DNA of 64,000 bases from Candidatus Kaiserbacteria bacterium CG10_big_fil_rev_8_21_14_0_10_45_20 (GTDB taxonomy: Bacteria > Patescibacteriota > Minisyncoccia > Phycocordibacterales > Phycocordibacteraceae). Position 1 is the stretch's first letter, and each line of letters begins with the position of its first letter. The stretch lies in the NCBI GenBank assembly GCA_002773335.1, contig PFBH01000014.1, positions 8,023 through 72,022 of the forward strand. Reading direction: 5' to 3'. The notes below the pieces were generated by a model that saw only the letters and a program-made list of their open reading frames with translations, had not been told where the DNA came from and made no database searches. The position numbers and the translations under genes are program-made. This document shows positions 3,332 through 56,445 of this stretch, piece by piece.

Positions 3332-4557
3332 GTATGTCAAAATTTAAAGTTAAAGCAATTACGAAAGGAGAGGATTCGTACGAAGAAGTTATTGACGCTG
3401 AAGATAAATTTGCGGCGTACAGGGAAATTCGTGAGCGTGGAGATACGGTTATTTCTCTCAAAGAGACGCAAGGCAAAGGAGGGGGTGGGCTCTCCCTCTC
3501 TTCAATAGATATTTTTTTGAGCAACGTATCTGCAGACGAAAAGGTGATGCTTACACGAAACCTCGCAGCAATGCTTGAAGCGGGATTGACGGCGTCCAGA
3601 GCTCTCGAAGTTATCGAAAAACAAACTAAAAATAAAAAACTAAAGTCAGTACTGCAGTCTATTGTTTCTGATGTAAAAAAGGGGGATCCGTTGTCGTCTG
3701 CGTTTGCTCGGTTTGATACTATATTTTCTCCACTCCTTATCTCTATGGTTCGCGCGGGTGAAGAATCTGGGCAAATGGCAGAGTCTCTCCGTGTCGTGTC
3801 TTCGCAGATGGAGAGTTCGAACAACCTATCAAAGAGAATAAAGGGAGCAATGATGTACCCGTCGATTGTTCTTATTGCGATGGTGATCATCGGTATTTTG
3901 ATGTTGATGTACGTGGTCCCTACGTTAACGCAAACTTTCTCAGAGCTGGGGACGGAATTGCCAATAACAACGCAAATGATTATTGGCGCGTCAAATTTTC
4001 TTGCTTCTAATACCGTTATCGCGCTTCTGGGAATATTTTTGGTTGTTGTGGGCTTTATATATGCACTACGAACAAAGGTTGGAGCGCGTGTATCAAACTT
4101 TATCTTGCTTCGCGTGCCGGTTATCGGAGATTTAATAAAAGAAGTGAACTCTGCCCGAACAACTCGCACCATATCTTCTCTGCTTTCGGCGGGGGTAGAT
4201 ATGGTGCTCGCCATATCTATTACCAAAGATGTGGTGCAAAACTCTTTTTATCAGAAAGTACTTATTGAAGCAGAGGCGTCGGTTGTAAAGGGCGGAAGTT
4301 TGTCTGAAACATTTCGTAAATATCCAAAACTGTATCCGCCACTGGTTCCTGAAATGGCGGCAGTGGGAGAGGAGACAGGGAGGTTGTCAGAAATGCTCAA
4401 TGAGACAGCTCAGTTTTATGAATCATCGGTAGAACGACAGACAAAAGACCTCTCAACAATTATAGAGCCGATTTTGATGTTATTTATCGGTAGCGTTGTG
4501 GGATTCTTTGCGCTCTCTATGATCGCTCCGATTTACTCACTTTCAAGTGCGATCTAA
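3328..4557 (+). CDS. pilC: Type IV pilus inner-membrane platform protein PilC/GspF
   Basis: Two GspF repeats with three transmembrane segments. Translationally coupled to pilB: the ATGA overlap at 3328-3331 joins the pilB stop to the pilC start. Confidence 0.8.
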   Translation: MSMSKFKVKAITKGEDSYEEVIDAEDKFAAYREIRERGDTVISLKETQGKGGGGLSLSSIDIFLSNVSADEKVMLTRNLAAMLEAGLTASRALEVIEKQTKNKKLKSVLQSIVSDVKKGDPLSSAFARFDTIFSPLLISMVRAGEESGQMAESLRVVSSQMESSNNLSKRIKGAMMYPSIVLIAMVIIGILMLMYVVPTLTQTFSELGTELPITTQMIIGASNFLASNTVIALLGIFLVVVGFIYALRTKVGARVSNFILLRVPVIGDLIKEVNSARTTRTISSLLSAGVDMVLAISITKDVVQNSFYQKVLIEAEASVVKGGSLSETFRKYPKLYPPLVPEMAAVGEETGRLSEMLNETAQFYESSVERQTKDLSTIIEPILMLFIGSVVGFFALSMIAPIYSLSSAI

Positions 4558-6919: not shown

Positions 6920-8378
6920 TATGCCTGTACACACAATGGTATTAAAAAAAATGAACAGTACTGCGCGCGGGTCTTTTGTACTTCTGACGTTGGTGTTTTC
7001 AGCAGTGTTTTTGACACTCATTACATCACTCTCAGGGTACATTTTTATCGAAAAACGAGCACAGCTTGCGAAGGAAAACCTAGAAAAGTCACTCCATATT
7101 GCCGAGGCGGGGCTCAATTACTATCGGTGGCGATTAGCACACTTTCCCGGAGATATCACTGATGGCACCGGAAACCCGGGGCCGTATGTGCACACGTTTT
7201 CTGACCCGGAAGAAGGGACGATCGGAAGCTTTTCTCTTGAAATTTCCGGTCAAACTTTCTGTGGTGTAACTTCGGGCATTTCAATTACATCTACCGGGTG
7301 GACAAACGCAGACCCTTCATTAAAACGTTCTGTGCGTGCAGTGTATACAAGGCCATCGGTTGCTGAATATTCACACATTGTAGATGCAAACGTTTGGGCG
7401 GGGAGCGACCGAATAATTTCCGGTCCGTACCACTCTAACGGAGGTGTGCGTATGGACGGTACTCACAACTCGACGGTTTCTTCTGGTGTTTCGTCGTGGT
7501 ACTGCAGTAGTTCGTTTGGCTGTAGCCCTCAACAAAACCAACCCGGAGTTTTTGGTTCAGGGTCAAACCCCGAGTTATGGAGCTACCCCACAACCCCCGT
7601 TGACTTTGGTGGTATTACGGTCGACCTTGCAGAGCTACGGCAGTATGCCATTGATGACGGCGTCTTTATTGAAAACTCTAACCGTTTTGGATGGAGGGTT
7701 GTTTTTAATGGTGATGGTACGTTTGATGTTCGTAAAGTGCAGTCTGCAACTAAAGTGTGGGAGTACTCTACGGAAGACGGGTGGCAACAAGAGCGACGTA
7801 TTGTAGGAAACCAACAGTCAGCGACAACGTACAGTATTCCAGCAGATTGCCCCGTGGTTTTTATTGAAGACGACATATGGGTGGAGGGTGTGGTGAGCGG
7901 AAAGGTTATTTTAGCTTCAGCTGATGTTACCAATCCGGGTGTAGACCATTCAGTGGTACTGAGTGGCAACATTACGTACGCAAACGAATCTGGAGACGGC
8001 ATCACCATTATTGGCGAAGAAAATGTTCTTATTGGTATAGATGTTCCAAACGAGATGACCATACAGGGTGTATTTATTGCGCAAAAAGGGCGGTTTGGCA
8101 GAAACCACTACTGCGATTACGATTGCTCTAGTACAAAAGGCAATCAATCCGTTCCCGGTAGTTTAGACGAATATGTGACGCGCAGTACACTCAACACAAT
8201 AGGTACGGTTGTTTCAAAAGAGAGAGTAGGCACCAAGTGGACATCGGGGGGGGCTTTTTTATCAGGGTTTAATCAAAGAAACGACTCATTCGATAAGGCT
8301 CTTGCTGACAGCCCTCCACCGTTTACCCCGTATGTGTCCGAAGACTACCTCTTCCGTTCGTGGCGTGAGGTGAATTAA
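6912..8378 (+). CDS. Putative minor pilin / pilus-associated protein (N-terminal hydrophobic anchor)
   Basis: N-terminus ...ARGSFVLLTLVFSAVFLTLITSLSGYIFIE is pilin-like (PilX-like). The gene overlaps the preceding pilin gene and lies in the pilB-pilC-pilin operon. Confidence 0.4.
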   Translation: MNSMPVHTMVLKKMNSTARGSFVLLTLVFSAVFLTLITSLSGYIFIEKRAQLAKENLEKSLHIAEAGLNYYRWRLAHFPGDITDGTGNPGPYVHTFSDPEEGTIGSFSLEISGQTFCGVTSGISITSTGWTNADPSLKRSVRAVYTRPSVAEYSHIVDANVWAGSDRIISGPYHSNGGVRMDGTHNSTVSSGVSSWYCSSSFGCSPQQNQPGVFGSGSNPELWSYPTTPVDFGGITVDLAELRQYAIDDGVFIENSNRFGWRVVFNGDGTFDVRKVQSATKVWEYSTEDGWQQERRIVGNQQSATTYSIPADCPVVFIEDDIWVEGVVSGKVILASADVTNPGVDHSVVLSGNITYANESGDGITIIGEENVLIGIDVPNEMTIQGVFIAQKGRFGRNHYCDYDCSSTKGNQSVPGSLDEYVTRSTLNTIGTVVSKERVGTKWTSGGAFLSGFNQRNDSFDKALADSPPPFTPYVSEDYLFRSWREVN

Positions 8379-28314: not shown

Positions 28315-29001
28315 TTAATATGGGTACTGTTCTGTGTCAGAAAGCTCTTCCTCTAATATTTTTGCTGTTGATGTATTTACAAAGTCTTTGTAGTTGCTAT
28401 TTGGAGTTGTTTCAAATTGTTCGGCGATAATATCTGACTCAAGAAGTCCTCCCCACCGGTTTGCTTCGGTAAGGTCTTGAAGAGAAGACCAAGGATATGA
28501 AAACTCTTTATTTTTCCAAGCAGACAGTTCACGGGGGTTTCTATGAATATATGCTGAAAGGTAGAGTAACTGTTTATTATCTTTTACGTGCACCGATTTA
28601 AAACGGCCTTGAAACACATGACCAGAAAGATGGTGACGTGTATTCATATACATCGTGTGAGCAACGAGGATTCGTTGCATATAGGCACTGATTCCTCCCG
28701 GGATCTTTTCGCGAACAAGGAGGTGGAAGTGGTTAGGCATAAGACAAAAAGAGGTAAGCTCAACAAAACGTGACTGCAAAACCTCAGAAAGCTTTTTTTC
28801 TGAAACGGGAAACCCAGTGAGCGCGTTGTAATTTTTTATATACCGCGTGACATTTTCAAACTGAATTGGTGACTGGAAGTAGAGGATGGAGAATAAAAAA
28901 CGCCGGCGATCAATATCATCTTTAAAAATATTTCCTCTACGCGAACCTCTATTGAAAATGTGGTAGTACTCGCCTTCAGCAATATTGCGTTTCTGAGTCA
29001 T
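28315..29001 (-). CDS. tnpA: HuH Y1 tyrosine transposase (IS200-like TnpA / REP-associated tyrosine transposase-like)
   Basis: HuH motif in CLMPNHFHLLV and catalytic Tyr region LSAYIHRNPRE. The N-terminus YYHIFNRGSRRGNIFKDDIDRRRFL is typical of this family. The start was chosen as Met17 of the track ORF, so the gene does not run into the palindrome. Confidence 0.65.
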   Translation of the reverse strand: MTQKRNIAEGEYYHIFNRGSRRGNIFKDDIDRRRFLFSILYFQSPIQFENVTRYIKNYNALTGFPVSEKKLSEVLQSRFVELTSFCLMPNHFHLLVREKIPGGISAYMQRILVAHTMYMNTRHHLSGHVFQGRFKSVHVKDNKQLLYLSAYIHRNPRELSAWKNKEFSYPWSSLQDLTEANRWGGLLESDIIAEQFETTPNSNYKDFVNTSTAKILEEELSDTEQYPY

Positions 29002-29016
29002 ATCTTTTTTGAGTGT

Positions 29017-29056
29017 AACACAAATGTTGGAGACCCGGGTCTCCAACATTTGTGTT
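29017..29056. repeat. Perfect 40 bp palindrome AACACAAATGTTGGAGACCC|GGGTCTCCAACATTTGTGTT (transposon end hairpin or REP-like)
   Basis: Seen directly in the sequence. No second copy in the window. Confidence 0.8.
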
Positions 29057-32143: not shown

Positions 32144-32680
32144 ATGAGCATTGTTCAAGAAAGACAAAAAGAAGGATTTAAGACACTCAAAGATACATTT
32201 GGATACTCTAATGTATTTCAGTCGCCACGCTTGATAAAGGTGGTTGTTTCAACAGGTATCGGCAAAATAAAAGACAAGAACAAAATTCAAACCATTCAAG
32301 ACAAACTTGCCCTCATTACGGGTCAAAAGGTTGCACCACGCGGAGCAAAGAAATCTATCGCTTCTTTTAAGGTTCGCGAGGGAGACATTGTGGGGTATCA
32401 GGTAACGCTCCGTGGAAAGAGAATGTACGACTTTCTCGACAAAGTTATTCATATCGCGCTTCCCCGAACTCGGGACTTCAGAGGCCTTAAGCCAACGGCT
32501 ATTGATGAAATGGGCAATATGACACTTGGAATCAAAGAGAATACCATCTTTCCTGAAACGACTGACGAAGACTTGAGAGATGTGTTCGGCATTGCGATTA
32601 CCGTTGTTTCAACGGCAAAAGACAAAAAAGAGGCAGAGGCATTTTACCGGCACCTCGGCTTTCCGCTCCAGAACGATTAA
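32144..32680 (+). CDS. rplE: 50S ribosomal protein L5
   Basis: Conserved L5 core (FGYSNVFQSPRL...). Confidence 0.9.
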   Translation: MSIVQERQKEGFKTLKDTFGYSNVFQSPRLIKVVVSTGIGKIKDKNKIQTIQDKLALITGQKVAPRGAKKSIASFKVREGDIVGYQVTLRGKRMYDFLDKVIHIALPRTRDFRGLKPTAIDEMGNMTLGIKENTIFPETTDEDLRDVFGIAITVVSTAKDKKEAEAFYRHLGFPLQND

Positions 32681-32701
32681 CTCTTATCGTCTCTATTTTT
32701 A

Positions 32702-32740
32702 AAAACCCCGCCAATCTATTTTTGATTGGCGGGGTTTTTG
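32702..32740 (+). terminator. Strong rho-independent terminator (15 bp GC-rich stem AAAACCCCGCCAATC / GATTGGCGGGGTTTT, then T run)
   Basis: Seen in the sequence directly after the rplE stop. Confidence 0.75.
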
Positions 32741-33203
32741 CGACTCTAGCGAGGTTTTATGGTAAGAAGTGGCTTAATAAAAAGCCCTCAATCGCCTAAA
32801 ATGCGTAGCGTTTTAGGCGATTAGGCATTAAAAAACCTGCCCTTTTTGCCCTTGTCCCCTTAAAACTCCCCGCATGCGGTGAGTTTTTTAATAATAAAGA
32901 AATAAATACAGAACCGAATTCCTCAACAGAATCTCGTCATTTTAGGTGCGACCGCATCTAAAATGACGAGATTGAGGATAGGTTTCAGTGAGGGCGTGTT
33001 TGAAAATCCACCCGAAAAATTTCAACTGTTTTATTTGTGCTCTGGTCCCTGTGCTTTGTGTTTTATTTGGTTTTTTGGACTTCTGTGTTTTGCGCTTTCT
33101 CTTTCTAAGCACTAATAACTAATTTTCTCATAACTCATACATCGTATTTCATTTCCCCCAGCTAATCCCTAATTCCCTAACAACCTAAAATCCTAGTTTT
33201 TCC

Positions 33204-33232
33204 TTGACTCTCTACCCCTTGGCTGTTACTAT
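33204..33232 (+). promoter_or_regulatory. Sigma70-like promoter: TTGACT, 17 nt spacer, TACTAT
   Basis: A near-consensus -35/-10 pair with a 17 nt spacer, about 170 nt upstream of rpsN. A structured, GC-richer 5' leader follows (33260-33400). Confidence 0.5.
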
Positions 33233-33402
33233 GCCCCCAGCTTTATAAGCGCCTCTTTTTTGCTCTCTATGGGCGGAAGAGCGCTCAAAGGCTGAAAACC
33301 CTCCTGATTCGTCGGGAAAGGTTCACCGAAAGTGAGTAAACCTTCTGGTTGTATGGGGCTTAAGCCTCACTGCTCACGTTTCGCTCGATACATTAATTTA
33401 CA

Positions 33403-33672
33403 ATGGCAAAAAAATCACAAATTGCACGAAATGCAAAACGCGTTCGCCTTTCGAAACGGTTTGCAGAAAAAAGAGAAACGCTAAAGAAAGCTGGAGACTA
33501 CGAAGGTCTGCAGAAGCTTCCACGTAACGCAAGTCCGGTGCGTATTAAAAACCGTTGCGCAATCACCGGTCGTTCTCGTGGGTATATGCGCCTCTTTGGC
33601 CTTTCACGAATCCAGTTCAGAGAGATGGCAAACCGTGGCGAGATTCCGGGCATTAAAAAAGCATCATGGTAA
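33403..33672 (+). CDS. rpsN: 30S ribosomal protein S14 (long, non-zinc form)
   Basis: 89 aa, [28 protein letters not shown]. Confidence 0.9.
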
Positions 33673-46495: not shown

Positions 46496-46549
46496 CCACC
46501 TCCACAATCACAAATACCCCTTGCGGGGTATTTGTGATTGTGGAGGTGG
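46496..46549. repeat. Perfect 25 bp-stem hairpin that also copies the last nucleotides of ssrA plus its terminator. It is a direct repeat of 46827-46879.
   Basis: CCACCTCCACAATCACAAATACCCC-TTGC-GGGGTATTTGTGATTGTGGAGGTGG. The right arm recurs exactly at 46855-46879. Confidence 0.8.
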
Positions 46550-46869
46550 AAGGTGGCGTCAGCTCACTCAGTATTTTGTTTCGCTCGATAGTTCGCTCAC
46601 AAAATACTGAGTGGCTCCTGCCCGGGCTCGTCCGTCGCAGGGCGGCATGACTCCGCCTTTCATTCCCCCACGAAAGCCAAGCAGTTGGCTTTCTCCACTG
46701 CGTTTGAAATCTGTTAAGCGCTCGCGACCCCGGCTCGGCTTTTCTCTTTCGCAGGAAAATACAACGAAAGAGAAATATACCTCCGCCCGGTTCATTCCCC
46801 ACGCACAGTGCGCAGGCACTGTGCTCCCACCACCCAATAAAAATACCCCTTGCGGGGTATTTGTGATTG

Positions 46870-47257
46870 TGGAGGTGGGGGGGAATGAACCCCCGTCCGA
46901 AAAGGGTCTTTGGGACGACTCTACAAAGCGTAGTTCTTTTTTTCACCGTGAAGTGAATTTAAGTATTAGTGTATAAAACGAACAAAAGAAGCTAATACCG
47001 AGCTCTCAATTTTCGAGAAGTTGTACGAGCAAAAAACTTCCTTATTCCGACTATATTACACCGGGTATCTCACTGTCAGAAAGAGTGAGATTCGATGCTG
47101 CTTAGGCTAAAGCGTAAGCAGGAGCACCTACGAACTGAGCGTAAGGGCTCTTAACAAGTGATTTTACACTTTGGGTTACTCGAGATTTTAGGTGTTCTCG
47201 AGCATTCACCGCTTTGCACGAAACAAAGGTGACCTTCCGTCAAAACTAGTCACCCCC
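46870..47257 (-). ncRNA. ssrA: tmRNA (ssrA), standard one-piece form
   Basis: The minus-strand 5' end GGGGGTGACTAGTTTTGACGG matches the tmRNA consensus GGGGnUGA...UUCGACGG. The 3' end GGACGGGGGTTCATTCCCCC-CACCTCC-A is a T-arm plus acceptor strand that pairs with the 5' end (one G.U pair). An internal tag reading frame ends ...GAPAYALA-TAA. A terminator hairpin follows immediately. Located just downstream of smpB. Confidence 0.8.
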
Positions 47258-47354: not shown

Positions 47355-47798
47355 TTATTCTCCTTTCAATGTTCTGTCTATGTGGCGTTTCGTATCTTTT
47401 GCTTTCAATAGCGCACGTTTATCATACCTCTTTTTGTGTCGCGCTACAGCAAATTCCAACTTTACCTTCCTGTTACCATTATACCACTTTATCGGGATAA
47501 TTGTCAACCCTCTCTTCCCGTCTTGTTCTGCAAGTTCAAGAATCTCTTTTTTTGAAAGAAGCAGTCGGCGTGCCCGTTCAGGGTCGTATGATGCAGGCGT
47601 GTTCTTTTCTTGATATGGAGATATCGAAGCTCCAACCAGAAACACTTCACCTCCTCGCACTAATACACGAGCTCCAAGCAAAGAAGCTTTTCCTGCACGA
47701 ATGGCTTTTACTTCATACCCAAAAAGCTCTGCTCCTGCAGAGTACGTTTCAAGAAATTCATAGTCAAAATGCGCCTTTTTGTTTTCTACAAATGCCAT
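47355..47798 (-). CDS. smpB: SsrA-binding protein SmpB
   Basis: MAFVENKKAHFDYEFLETYSAGAELFGYEVKAIR is the conserved SmpB N-terminus. Confidence 0.9.
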   Translation of the reverse strand: MAFVENKKAHFDYEFLETYSAGAELFGYEVKAIRAGKASLLGARVLVRGGEVFLVGASISPYQEKNTPASYDPERARRLLLSKKEILELAEQDGKRGLTIIPIKWYNGNRKVKLEFAVARHKKRYDKRALLKAKDTKRHIDRTLKGE

Positions 47799-50029: not shown

Positions 50030-50734
50030 ATGTTCGGTATTATGTCAAAGTTTTCAAAACGAGACCTAGCGATTCGGATGCGAGAAAAAGGAATGAGTTA
50101 TTCTCAAATAAAAGAGCATTTGCAAGTCAGTAAAAGCACCCTTAGTTTATGGCTTCGTCATATGCCCCTCTCGGAACAGAGAATACGAGAACTGCGAGAT
50201 CACTCTGAGCAACGAATAGAGAAAACAAGGGAAACAAAACGAAAGAAAAAGTTACAGCGTATACGCAGTGTTTACTCTGAGGCTGTAAAAGATATTGGTA
50301 AAGTTTCAAAAAGAGAACTGTATATAGCGGGGTTTTTTCTCTATTGGGGGGAGGGGGTAAAAGCTGATCCGTATACAACGATGTTTACGAATACTGACCC
50401 TGCTATGGTGAAGTGTTTCATTCAGTGGATCGCTCTTTTAGGAGTAAAAAAATCTGACTTGAAAGTATATCTACACGTTTATAGTGATATGGACATTCCC
50501 CAAATAATTACATTCTGGTCTAATGAATTAAATATCCCTCAATCGTCGTTTCGGAAACCATACGTTAAAAAAAGTGTTGCTGGTAAACAAAAAAATTATA
50601 AGGGTCGTTTTGGTTTTGGTACCTGTAATATATATGTGCGTAATAGAGACATACGTGAAAAAATAATTATGTCTATTGCCAGGATACGAGAAGTCTATGG
50701 GGGTATTGCTTTTGACCCTGAAAAAGAGATATAG
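50030..50734 (+). CDS. HTH-containing protein with a degenerate single LAGLIDADG-like motif (putative free-standing homing-endonuclease-like gene)
   Basis: N-terminal helix-turn-helix (MSYSQIKEHLQVSKSTLSLWL). YIAGFFLYWGEG sits at the LAGLIDADG position. Distal KGRFGFGTCNIYVRNRDI resembles the second conserved block of LAGLIDADG enzymes. The gene is bracketed by GAGATA(TA)GTTTAAAT direct repeats. Confidence 0.35.
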   Translation: MFGIMSKFSKRDLAIRMREKGMSYSQIKEHLQVSKSTLSLWLRHMPLSEQRIRELRDHSEQRIEKTRETKRKKKLQRIRSVYSEAVKDIGKVSKRELYIAGFFLYWGEGVKADPYTTMFTNTDPAMVKCFIQWIALLGVKKSDLKVYLHVYSDMDIPQIITFWSNELNIPQSSFRKPYVKKSVAGKQKNYKGRFGFGTCNIYVRNRDIREKIIMSIARIREVYGGIAFDPEKEI

Positions 50735-50741
50735 TTTAAAT

Positions 50742-50816
50742 CCGCCCTTAGCTCAATTGGTTAGAGCATCTAGCTTATACCTAGAAGGTTTCCTGGTTCG
50801 AGTCCAGGAGGGCGGA
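50742..50816 (+). tRNA. tRNA with anticodon UAU (Ile, reading AUA), no encoded CCA
   Basis: Acceptor stem CCGCCCT/AGGGCGG, D-arm GCTC-AATTGGTTA-GAGC, anticodon arm TCTAG-CTTATAC-CTAGA, T-arm CCTGG-TTCGAGT-CCAGG. The variable loop appears to be 6 nt, so the fold has one irregularity. Confidence 0.6.
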
Positions 50817-51282
50817 CATGATAGAGAAAAGCAAACTGCTTTGCTTTTCTCGATACATGTCCGAGCCGGAGCCATGTTTTTCCAGCAGGAAAAACAGGCG
50901 AGGCGGGGTCGCGGAATTTTGCGAGTGACTGACGAGCAAAATATCCGTGACGACCAGACAGAAATATCCCGCCTGCGCGGGATTTTCTGCGTCAGTCCGA
51001 GGCACAGGGTTGTGTGAGTTTGAGCGAAGCGAAAGGCGAACACCCCGAGCCGGGGTCACCACAAGAGTACTTCTATTTCTCTAATTCGATGACTCATAAG
51101 AGAAATTGGTCGCGCGAAAAATTTCCGTTAGGAAATTTATTTGTGACGACCAGATACAAATATCCCGCCTGCGCACTGTTTTTGTTTACATGTCCGAGCC
51201 GTACCACACGGGCACTTCACAAACGTGTGCAAAAAATCATTGTAGTGGCAATAACACATAACATCCTATATCATAGCTGTAT

Positions 51283-55006: not shown

Positions 55007-55663
55007 ATGTCGGCAGAGTCATTTAAGAGAGCAAGAGATCGTTGGCAAATTGAAAGAGAGGCTAAGATTTTTCTTTCAAAAAAAGGTATTGCAAAGTGGA
55101 AAGAGAGGTTAGAGCAAGAAGGGCTCCGTAAATTTCATGACGCGATTATTGATACTCGGTGGGTACGGGTTCCTGATATACGCGGTCGATTTGTGAGCGC
55201 TCGCCTCCGTACCGCGACAGAGAAAAAAGACCCGAAGCAGTTTTTATGGGCAATTAAGGTTCGTACATCAGCGCACTCTGAGGCAAAGCACATTAAAGAG
55301 TGTTACGAACTCGAAGGAAGTGGAGATTCAATGAAATCAGTACGAAAAGAACTCAAGAAACACTTAAGGGCGGTGCTCGGCAAAGAAACTCCAGACAAGT
55401 TGATAGAAGATAGGCGTCTTATAAAACGACGAGTGTCGTACGAAACGCAAGATCTTAACCACTCACTTTTTGGCGTACGGTTTGATATAGATACACTTGA
55501 GACTGTGAACGGTAAAAAAATAGACCCTCCCATCCACATTCTCGAACTAGAGGGGCTTTCGGAAACGTTGATACTCTCAGCGACTAAACACTTGGGGATA
55601 GATCCGCAAAAACTTTCTTCTATATCAGGCAAGGTATTGCTGAAAGAGACGGGGTATTTGTAG
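55007..55663 (+). CDS. Hypothetical protein (218 aa, Lys/Arg/Glu-rich)
   Basis: ORF lies 1 bp after the malic-enzyme stop. No recognisable motif. Confidence 0.4.
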   Translation: MSAESFKRARDRWQIEREAKIFLSKKGIAKWKERLEQEGLRKFHDAIIDTRWVRVPDIRGRFVSARLRTATEKKDPKQFLWAIKVRTSAHSEAKHIKECYELEGSGDSMKSVRKELKKHLRAVLGKETPDKLIEDRRLIKRRVSYETQDLNHSLFGVRFDIDTLETVNGKKIDPPIHILELEGLSETLILSATKHLGIDPQKLSSISGKVLLKETGYL

Positions 55664-56246
55664 AGAGTGCGGGATGTGTCTTCGCTACGCTCGCACGCAT
55701 CGGTCACAGATATTTTGTTCGCCGTCGCTCACAAAATTCCGCGCGACCAATTTCTCTTACGAGTCTGCGAGTTAGAGAAATGGAAGTACTCTTGTGGTGA
55801 CCCTGTCTCGCGACCCATTCTGCTGAATGGGTACCCTGCTCCGGCTTTCGCGACTTTGTTTTGTTACGAACGAAGTGAGTTAGAAAACAAGAAGTGCCCG
55901 TGTGGTACGACTTTGTTTTGTTACGAACGAAGTGAGTTAGAAAACAAGAAGTGCCCGTGTGGTGAATCCCGACGTAAAGCACGCAGGTGCTTTACTCACT
56001 CTCCGCAGTATACTCACTGCGCTCGAATCTGCGGAGAGTGCGGGATGTGTCTTCGCTACGCTCGCACGCATCGGTCAGGAATAATTTGCTCGTCAGTCAC
56101 TCGCAAATTTTCACGACCCTGGCTCGTCTGTTTTTTCTGCTGAAAAAACATGACTGCGCCTTTCGAATCCCGACGTAAAGCACGCAGGTGCTTTACTCAC
56201 TCTCCGCAGTATACTCACTGCGCTCGAATCTGCGGAGAGTGCGGGA
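55664..56246. repeat. Array of long direct repeats seeded from the 3' end of tRNA-Ser: an 82 bp direct repeat (55965-56046 and 56165-56246), a 44 bp direct repeat (55664-55707 and 56034-56077) and a 57 bp tandem duplication (55851-55907 and 55908-55964)
   Basis: Exact string matches seen in the sequence. The last copy runs into the tRNA-Ser 3' end. Confidence 0.8.
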
Positions 56247-56319
56247 TTCGAACCCGCGAGGGCGGTTAAGCCCTACCTCGTTAGCAGTGAGGCGCTTTCG
56301 ACCACTCAGCCAACTCTCC
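56233..56319 (-). tRNA. tRNA-Ser (anticodon GCU), long variable arm
   Basis: The reverse complement gives GGAGAGT acceptor, anticodon loop CTGCTAA, a 19 nt variable arm, T-arm GCGGG-TTCGAAT-CCCGC, and 3' ACTCTCC-G. Confidence 0.8.
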
Positions 56320-56445
56320 GTGTTATACACAATGAAGCGATGACTTCTATCTATCTTTCGACAGATGTTCCCGTCATATTGGGACAGGCAGCCAACTCTC
56401 CGTAAGGTGAACTATATTGCATTTTCTTGTTAGTTGCAAAAACTA

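Follow-up and report, generated by a model that had tools for sequence, protein, structure and literature searches.

Tandem copies of a conserved, structured non-coding module behind tRNA-Ser(GCU) in a Candidatus Kaiserbacteria genome

The gene for tRNA-Ser(GCU) of Candidatus Kaiserbacteria bacterium CG10_big_fil_rev_8_21_14_0_10_45_20 (assembly GCA_002773335.1, contig PFBH01000014.1) lies in a field of direct repeats derived from both of its ends. The analysed stretch of 64,000 nucleotides (positions 8,023 to 72,022 of the contig) is called the window, and all coordinates are counted from its first letter. Repeats were mapped by a search of the window for direct and inverted copies, and tRNA genes were called by ARAGORN and Rfam. 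The repeats enclose copies of a structured module, for which a covariance model, R1, was built from ten units. Read in the direction of the tRNA, the order is: a promoter-like site, a 15-nt copy of the tRNA 5' end, a 67-nt insert, the tRNA, module copies E1 and E2, and a partial copy of the tRNA 3' end. The features are as follows.

56411-56439, minus strand: promoter-like site TTGCAA-17-TATAGT, which directly precedes the tRNA in relatives
56389-56403, minus strand: upstream copy of the tRNA 5' end (ACGGAGAGTTGGCTG), exact, at the presumed ancestral position of the tRNA start
56322-56388, minus strand: leader insert of 67 nt between the two tRNA 5'-end copies
56232/3-56319, minus strand: tRNA-Ser(GCU), found by ARAGORN and Rfam, intact, CCA not encoded
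56165-56247, minus strand: 83-nt direct repeat, copy 1, an exact match to 55964-56046
56032-56173, minus strand: module copy 1 (E1), core and terminal copy of the tRNA 3' end, R1 98.7 bits, E = 1e-23, period 201 nt
55964-56046, minus strand: second copy of the 83-nt direct repeat, with which module copy 2 starts; inverted 3'-end copy at 55997-56008
55850-55963, minus strand: two 57-nt hairpin units (D), inserted in module copy 2 after GGGATTC
55661-55853, minus strand: core of module copy 2 (E2), R1 46.9 bits, E = 8e-10, ending in a partial 3'-end copy
55744-55799, minus strand: diverged third hairpin unit (X) with compensatory stem changes
55007-55663, plus strand: orphan open reading frame (ORF) of 218 aa, a flanking gene outside the repeat field

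The long direct repeats around the tRNA, reported in an earlier note made from the letters alone, are real, with some corrections. The longest one, given there as 82 bp, is an exact repeat of 83 nt formed by the last 16 nt of the tRNA and 67 nt of the trailer; copy 1 also holds the trailer hairpin, the tRNA 3' end in inverted form (56198-56209), a hairpin of 9 bp and GGGATTC. The 44-bp repeat is the exact core of a 66-nt repeat with 88% identity (55656-55721 and 56027-56092). The 57-bp tandem duplication is found as an exact tandem at 55851-55963, with 56/57-nt units at 55851-55906 and 55908-55963. The upstream copy of the tRNA 5' end is also confirmed: 15 nt at 56307-56321 recur exactly at 56389-56403 with a spacing of 82, one nucleotide away from the position given before. 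The three copies of the tRNA 3' end stand in number, but not all in full length. The string GGAGAGTGCGGGAT has three occurrences in 64 kb (55662, 56033 and 56234) against 0.22 expected, and the third copy (55662-55675) is only partial, matching over about 13 nt and then running into the stop codon of the ORF 55007-55663. An inverted 12-nt copy of the same end (CTGCGGAGAGTG), absent from the earlier note, is situated 20 nt downstream of each full direct copy. The three copies present the pattern by which tDNA islands are recognized, namely displaced 3' fragments in direct orientation beside an intact tRNA gene. Such direct repeats fit the topology of insertions that regenerate the tRNA end (PMC4383910).

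An ORF of 158 aa on the plus strand (55667-56143) is called as a gene in a public assembly (L001, 891-1367; L numbers denote the contigs and loci compared here). It is built wholly of repeat modules and has no Pfam match on record. It is almost certainly spurious, being the modules read on the opposite strand.

Repeats in a metagenome-assembled genome may be assembly artefacts, and many short-read contigs do end inside this region. However, an independent MEGAHIT k141 contig (L001/L008) covers all of it, with a mismatch at 1 of 2201 nt, parts of the region are recovered in contigs from five other samples, and homologous architectures are seen in many unrelated assemblies. An artefact is thus extremely improbable. 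One contig (L004) contains a single 57-nt unit rather than two. Another one, from the same population (L013), is 100% identical over 969 nt upstream and has a different sequence starting exactly from the tRNA 3' end, the junction reading ...CTCTCCG-CCA-ATTTTCAC... With such a variant in its own population and recombinase-bearing islands at the same place in relatives, the tRNA 3' end is a genuine hotspot of recombination.

What lies between the repeats is not island debris: a conserved non-coding module of about 130-200 nt is present there in two tandem copies (201 and 371 bp). E1, with the 201-nt period, and E2, with the 371-nt period, are homologous end to end; E2 consists of an E1-like backbone, two identical 57-nt hairpin units and one diverged unit. 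The latter, X, has a counterpart of about 86% identity at 51058-51116, behind the tRNA-Ile gene. The head of the hairpin units, ACCACAnGnGnACTTC, occurs five times in the window, always in the trailers of tRNA-Ser and tRNA-Ile and co-oriented with the tRNA. Folded as DNA, E1 has a closing stem of 12 bp and a z-score of -7.7 (-6.8 for the opposite strand).

Three simpler descriptions of the trailer were considered and dropped. A simple tandem duplication does not account for the differing interiors of the units and the foreign sequence of the 5' insert. A decayed tRNA pseudogene has marginal similarity only, as 6-20 of 300 shuffled sequences score as well. A retroviral-type primer-binding site is contradicted by the inverted copy, which complements the genomic trailer (CAG, GCAA) and not the CCA end.

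The module is not confined to tRNA-Ser. R1 matches the window in five places only, all of them behind three tRNA-like genes. Besides the features listed above these are as follows.

50865-50950, plus strand: module behind tRNA-Ile(UAU) (50742-50817), R1 50.4 bits
46512-46878, minus strand: module behind the transfer-messenger RNA (tmRNA) gene, R1 48.3 bits at 46541-46669 and a weak match at 46686-46787
46867-47257, minus strand: tmRNA gene, Rfam 94 bits, missed by ARAGORN, next to smpB (47355-47798)

Thus all three tRNA-like genes of the window carry the module. By eye, the core behind tRNA-Ile is similar to module copy 1 (roughly 85%, not computed). The tmRNA module is bounded by a 38-nt exact direct repeat that consists of the tmRNA end and the terminator (46841-46878 is identical to 46512-46549), and the distal copy of the tmRNA end forms a perfect 54-nt palindrome (46496-46549).

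Behind the tRNA-Ile gene, whose anticodon UAU is unusual, about 460 nt are non-coding and include a module core (region 50742-51282, plus strand). This trailer has its own repeats of 37 nt (50942-50978 and 51138-51174) and 15 nt (50854 and 51187) and hairpin units akin to those of tRNA-Ser. An ORF of 234 aa (50030-50734, plus strand) ends 8 nt before the tRNA-Ile gene and has matches to resolvase-type helix-turn-helix (HTH) domains. It may be homing-endonuclease-like, as its C-terminal part resembles LAGLIDADG proteins by eye (IAGFFLYWGEG).

To collect related loci in bacteria of the Candidate Phyla Radiation (CPR), metagenomes were scanned for a conserved 38-mer from the body of the tRNA, which yielded at least 120 loci, about 100-110 of them with enough flanking sequence; a first scan with a 34-mer query had given no match. 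Among the matches listed, 18-19 of about 100 tRNA-Ser loci have a short-range copy of the 3' end, with about 0.02 expected by chance. These loci contain one to two extra direct copies of the last 13-16 nt at +99 to +546, that is, up to three copies per locus counting the tRNA's own end, and in several of them an inverted copy as well. What the 3'-end copies enclose is homologous from locus to locus, and units from at least 12 loci can be aligned. The layout of the module is as follows. Firstly, there is a hairpin, which resembles a terminator in many loci, often with T's after it. Secondly, there is an inverted copy of the T-loop, T-stem and acceptor strand (..GGGATTCGAA). Then comes a core of several hairpins, AAGGCGGAG-hairpin-CGAGCC.GGGTC-hairpin-GTGACC. 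Finally, there is the direct copy, GAATCCC plus the acceptor strand. A second class with a different core was observed in L106, L110, L134, L137, L149 and L171.

R1 scores of 66-113 bits were obtained directly downstream of tRNA-Ser and in the same orientation in L148, L123 (twice), L095, L082, L159, L165, L108, L140 (twice), L170, L190 and L189; the two tandem copies in L140 are 100% identical. R1 also has matches behind tRNA-Ile(UAU) in L108, L098 and L128. The module core behind the latter gene forms three-copy tandem arrays in L098 (3036-3392) and L128 (1405-1641), with periods of 137 and 84 nt. In L095, a truncated tRNA copy (the first ~63 nt, 297-360) is situated 197 nt upstream of the intact gene, together with two 115-nt upstream units.

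The presence of the module is patchy among contigs with identical tRNA; their flanks are otherwise unrelated and do not form matched filled and empty sites. Among 49 genome loci that share the tRNA 3' end (a scan with a 26-mer), none of them from Kaiserbacteria, only one contig, from Saccharibacteria, contains the module, and no locus outside CPR does. In Rfam only the tRNA and tmRNA genes have matches, and the modules have none at E up to 1-10; hammerhead, group I intron and other known ribozymes were dropped on this ground. No description of the module was found in the literature searched. Viral contigs scanned for the tRNA 3' end gave only tRNA arrays of jumbo phages, and those scanned for the element/tRNA junction, the L013 tail and the trailer gave nothing.

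The ends of the module are matched to the gene behind which it resides. Behind tRNA-Ser it starts with GGGATTCGAA, the inverse of TTCGAATCCC, and behind tRNA-Ile with GGACTCGAA, the inverse of TTCGAGTCC. Behind tmRNA the start is GGGGGAATGAA in the window and GGGGAATTGAA in L108, in both cases the inverse of the T-loop of that very tmRNA. The far end consists of the conserved GTGACC followed by the sequence of the host gene itself, beginning near T-loop position 56 and reaching the 3' end. This direct copy is exact over 20 nt for tRNA-Ile in L108 and, including the terminator, over 38 nt for the tmRNA of the window. The combination of host-matched inverted and direct ends holds in two genomes. 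Within one genome the cores at different host genes look alike (by eye, roughly 85-93%, not computed). Since the ends are matched to the host and the cores are similar within a genome, it is likely that the core is shared while the termini are re-made for each target, the boundary being in the T-loop. Because a new copy of the tRNA 3' end forms the far end of the module, its insertion leaves the tRNA intact, and direct repeats arise.

These observations bear on the explanation offered before, that the repeats are decayed attL and attR copies from elements that repeatedly integrated at tRNA-Ser or were excised, taken here as large islands with an integrase that were lost imprecisely. Part of it stands: the repeats come from insertions at the tRNA by which its ends are regenerated, and the direct repeats have the classical tDNA-island topology (PMC4383910). 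A comparison with relatives, proposed in the same note as a check, did reveal islands at this tRNA: eight related loci have a large serine recombinase gene immediately next to the tRNA-Ser 3' end (L182, L180, L196, L152, L103, L146, L084 and L104; by phmmer, and by Pfam for L182). The junctions at these loci mostly read CCG-CCA-A..., as in L013, with CCA encoded, unlike the native trailers. The L013 variant junction in the same population and a 4-kb insert between tRNA and module in L159 also fit an island history. However, the repeats are not the scars of such large islands. Random decay would not leave the same structured 130-200 nt in many lineages and behind three genes, and the intervals between the supposed att copies are such homologous modules, present behind tRNA-Ile and tmRNA as well. 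No module sequence was found next to the tRNA in the recombinase-bearing loci, and an island-sized interval between 3'-end copies is seen in 1 of about 100 loci among the matches listed. Island decay would also leave the inverted copy of the tRNA end unexplained. In the window, neither an integrase or its remnant nor cargo was found in the 201- and 371-bp intervals or beside the repeats. On balance, island decay is an unlikely origin of the repeats.

The orphan gene 55007-55663, earlier proposed as possible surviving cargo, is not cargo, as it is situated outside the outermost copy of the tRNA 3' end and its homologue resides at a malic-enzyme gene without a tRNA. This homologue is the only one found. 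It has 76% identity and is likewise located directly after the malic-enzyme gene; an unrelated convergent gene follows after 25 nt, and there is no tRNA fragment.

The large serine recombinase genes of the eight loci converge on the tRNA 3' end; in L182 the recombinase gene (238-1626) is followed by a type I restriction-modification system. The 4-kb insert of L159 is situated between the trailer hairpin of the tRNA and a module core. It has inverted repeats of 281 nt at its two boundaries (250-530 and 3784-4064; 99% complementary) and contains genes for HTH and T5orf172/MUG113 proteins and a major facilitator superfamily (MFS) transporter, and no integrase.

The inverted and direct copies of the tRNA end pair with each other and close the module, so that the closing stem equals the duplex formed by the host gene from the T-loop to the 3' end. 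The terminal inverted repeats are thus the tRNA-end copies themselves, of 12-16 nt or more. In an R1-based alignment of 27 matches, 92.4% of pair cells are standard pairs, compared to 72% in shuffles and 30-53% in slid controls, and compensatory changes on both sides are seen in 16 of 23 pairs. Loop motifs are biased to the tRNA-sense strand: CGAAG occurs 40 times and CTTCG 6 times, GCGAAGC 12 times against 2, and GAGCGA 10 times against 0.

One possibility is that the module encodes a functional RNA, whose transcription would begin at a start of its own or come by read-through from the tRNA. With its tRNA-like closing stem this RNA would then be trimmed and stabilized by RNase P, RNase Z and the CCA-adding enzyme, and the repeats would be the tRNA-like ends that such an RNA needs. 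Indeed, the module is always directly behind a tRNA-like gene and co-oriented with it, its structure is supported by covariation, its loop motifs are strand-specific, and the closing stem copies the 7-bp acceptor stem and the T-stem of the host. The upstream modules mirror this arrangement with the tRNA 5' end, and a conserved TATAC(T/A) precedes the acceptor-like strand by about 7 nt in the window and in L072. On the other hand, a hairpin with a run of T's separates tRNA and module in about half of the loci, including tmRNA and tRNA-Ile of the window. The patchy presence among contigs with identical tRNA, the copy number varying from 1 to 3, and the lack of an Rfam family also speak against a functional RNA, as do the loops rich in GCGAAGC. 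This sequence is known as a DNA mini-hairpin of unusual stability and not as an RNA motif. We regard a functional RNA as the main alternative, but a doubtful one.

The state of the locus before the insertions may be seen in relatives, which were reached for the analysis of synteny via the ComF-like neighbour gene. The order in L076 is PilM, ComF, 35 nt, tRNA-Ser, 3 nt, the stop codon of a convergent malic-enzyme gene, RecG. This is the gene order of the window, but without the orphan ORF, the repeats and the leader insert, and judging from this arrangement L076 would represent an ancestral-like state. The distance from the ComF stop codon to the tRNA start is 35 nt in L072, L076 and L078, and that to the upstream 15-mer in the window is 44 nt. 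In L074, the promoter-like site TTGCAA-17-TATAGT is followed by 7 nt and then by ACGGAG of the tRNA. The spacing and the promoter arrangement in L076 and L074 suggest that the upstream 15-mer is the original start of the tRNA and the following 82 bp are an insertion.

Inserts at the 5' end are found at other loci too. Copies of the first 13-14 nt of the tRNA were found at -61 to -330 in about 25 of about 110 loci among the matches listed, and the leader inserts between the 5'-end copies contain a GIY-YIG ORF in four loci. Among the matches listed, about 11% of related loci have such GIY-YIG mini-genes, of about 80-95 aa, immediately next to tRNA-Ser(GCU) or within duplications of it. The upstream ones (L133, L157, L158, L161) reside inside an insert of about 300 nt between duplicated tRNA 5' ends, and these four inserts are also flanked by GC-rich hairpins with CCAAGG or CTCGGG loops. 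Downstream ones were observed in six loci (L083, L086, L088, L114, L115, L176). L145 and L107 look like ORF-less remnants of such 5' elements, and the 67-nt leader insert of the window may be another one. In L176 (4979-5067), the tRNA-Ser gene apparently lacks a part of the T-arm, GGTTCGAAT being joined directly to GTCTCCGCC.

The same comparisons constrain a purely local origin, in which the native trailer was duplicated by slippage or unequal crossing-over with neither mobility nor function. The 201- and 371-nt periods and the exact 57-nt tandem fit unequal recombination, and the number of 57-nt units differs between samples. However, the ancestral-like L076 has no trailer to duplicate, the same module with ends matched to each gene is present behind tRNA-Ile and tmRNA, and the 67-nt leader insert is foreign and flanked by 15-nt repeats rather than being a tandem copy. 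Thus, as the source of the module, local duplication is largely refuted and very improbable as a complete explanation. It is the likely cause of the tandem amplification step.

The explanation that we prefer is that the repeats arise from a non-autonomous module, conserved and structured, that is present in tandem and targets the T-loop and 3' end of tRNA-like genes; we assign it a probability of roughly 55%. The modules would be, or would formerly have been, mobilized in trans. The history of the tRNA-Ser locus might then be as follows. The module would have been inserted at the T-loop and 3' end, and then amplified in tandem through recombination between the repeated segments consisting of the tRNA end and the trailer. 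The 57-nt hairpin units would have invaded copy 2 later, and a separate insertion of 82 bp would have occurred at the tRNA 5' end. As for the mechanism, we favour the possibility that a folded single strand recombines, the closing stem re-creating a duplex copy of the target. This scheme is modelled by analogy on the CTX phage attP and the integron attC. A more specific version, considerably more tentative, is that the modules form a new class of non-autonomous mobile elements specific for CPR/Patescibacteria, which would move as a folded single strand (DNA or RNA); its stem, a copy of the colonized gene from the T-loop to the 3' end, would mimic the target for a recombinase of the host or of an island, and the element would be re-tailored for each gene.

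Several points weigh against this preferred explanation. No recombinase, transposase or nuclease tied to the modules was found, and none is encoded near the modules in the window. Neither a free or circular form nor a clean pair of filled and empty sites with otherwise identical flanks was found. The direct repeats are of 13, 38 and 83 nt, unlike a target-site duplication of fixed length. Gene conversion, and not transposition, could account for the likeness of the cores within one genome. E1 folds well on either strand, the covariation alignment is fitted to the model, and the counts of G-U and A-C pairs (14 vs 9) do not single out one strand. Finally, the loci were sampled via tRNA-Ser, and the distribution over other tRNAs is poorly covered.

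Two other regions of the window attracted attention. A gene for an IS200-like Y1 transposase (Pfam Y1_Tnp; 28315-29049, minus strand) is situated on the opposite strand between rplB and rpsS in the ribosomal-protein operon. Its flanks contain only ordinary terminator hairpins and no R1 match; a link of the modules to this transposase was dropped, as no hairpins are shared. The non-coding gap of about 720 nt between rplE and rpsN (32680-33403) contains several hairpins; in a compact CPR genome a gap of this length is unusual. It is matched neither by R1 nor, at a significant level, by any Rfam family.

The modules resemble several known systems, and coincide with none of them. With tDNA islands, as defined by the Islander logic and including the tandem arrays at tmRNA, they share the regenerated target, the displaced direct 3' fragment, the boundary in the T-loop (as in the T-loop sublocation class) and tandem arrangement, and the same tRNA hosts recombinase-bearing islands in relatives. 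However, the modules are 130-370 bp long, non-coding and without an integrase; their folded core is conserved, and the target end is present in them as an inverted copy as well. The CTX attP site used by XerCD and integron attC offer an analogy: inverted target-like copies about 100 nt apart that can fold into a duplex site, conservation of structure more than of sequence, and frequent tandem integration. For the modules, the target would be the end of a tRNA-like gene rather than dif or attI, the whole element would be of only about 150-200 nt, and no link to XerCD or IntI was found. Miniature inverted-repeat transposable elements (MITEs) and REPINs are likewise small, non-coding, hairpin-rich, multicopy and patchily distributed, with terminal inverted repeats. 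In contrast, the modules occur only behind tRNA-like genes, their termini are copied from the host gene, and there is no fixed short target duplication; moreover, unlike in REP/REPIN-RAYT systems, the Y1_Tnp gene of the window is not flanked by modules. Cis-mobilizable elements (CIMEs) formed by accretion are also att-flanked units without a recombination module that stand in tandem at one tRNA gene, but they are kilobases long and derived from integrative and conjugative elements (ICEs), whereas the modules are of about 0.2 kb and have a conserved RNA-like fold. Lastly, free-standing GIY-YIG homing endonuclease genes are known in tRNA regions, such as the seg genes of phage T4 (PMC2330249). 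The GIY-YIG mini-genes beside tRNA-Ser or within its duplications in relatives are similar to them. However, there is no GIY-YIG gene at the locus of the window, and the link to the modules is positional only.

The finding has some practical consequences. The modules break short-read assemblies at tRNA genes and create spurious gene calls such as that of the 158-aa ORF 55667-56143, and island finders based on att sites could mistake them for island boundaries. As for biology, a very small CPR genome keeps several hundred bases of the same folded module behind each of three tRNA-like genes. If the modules are RNAs, they would be non-coding RNAs of a new and widespread family, with ends like those of tRNA. 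If they are mobile, this would be a new way to target tRNA and tmRNA genes, in which the target end is copied into both arms of a stem by an element without a recombinase of its own.

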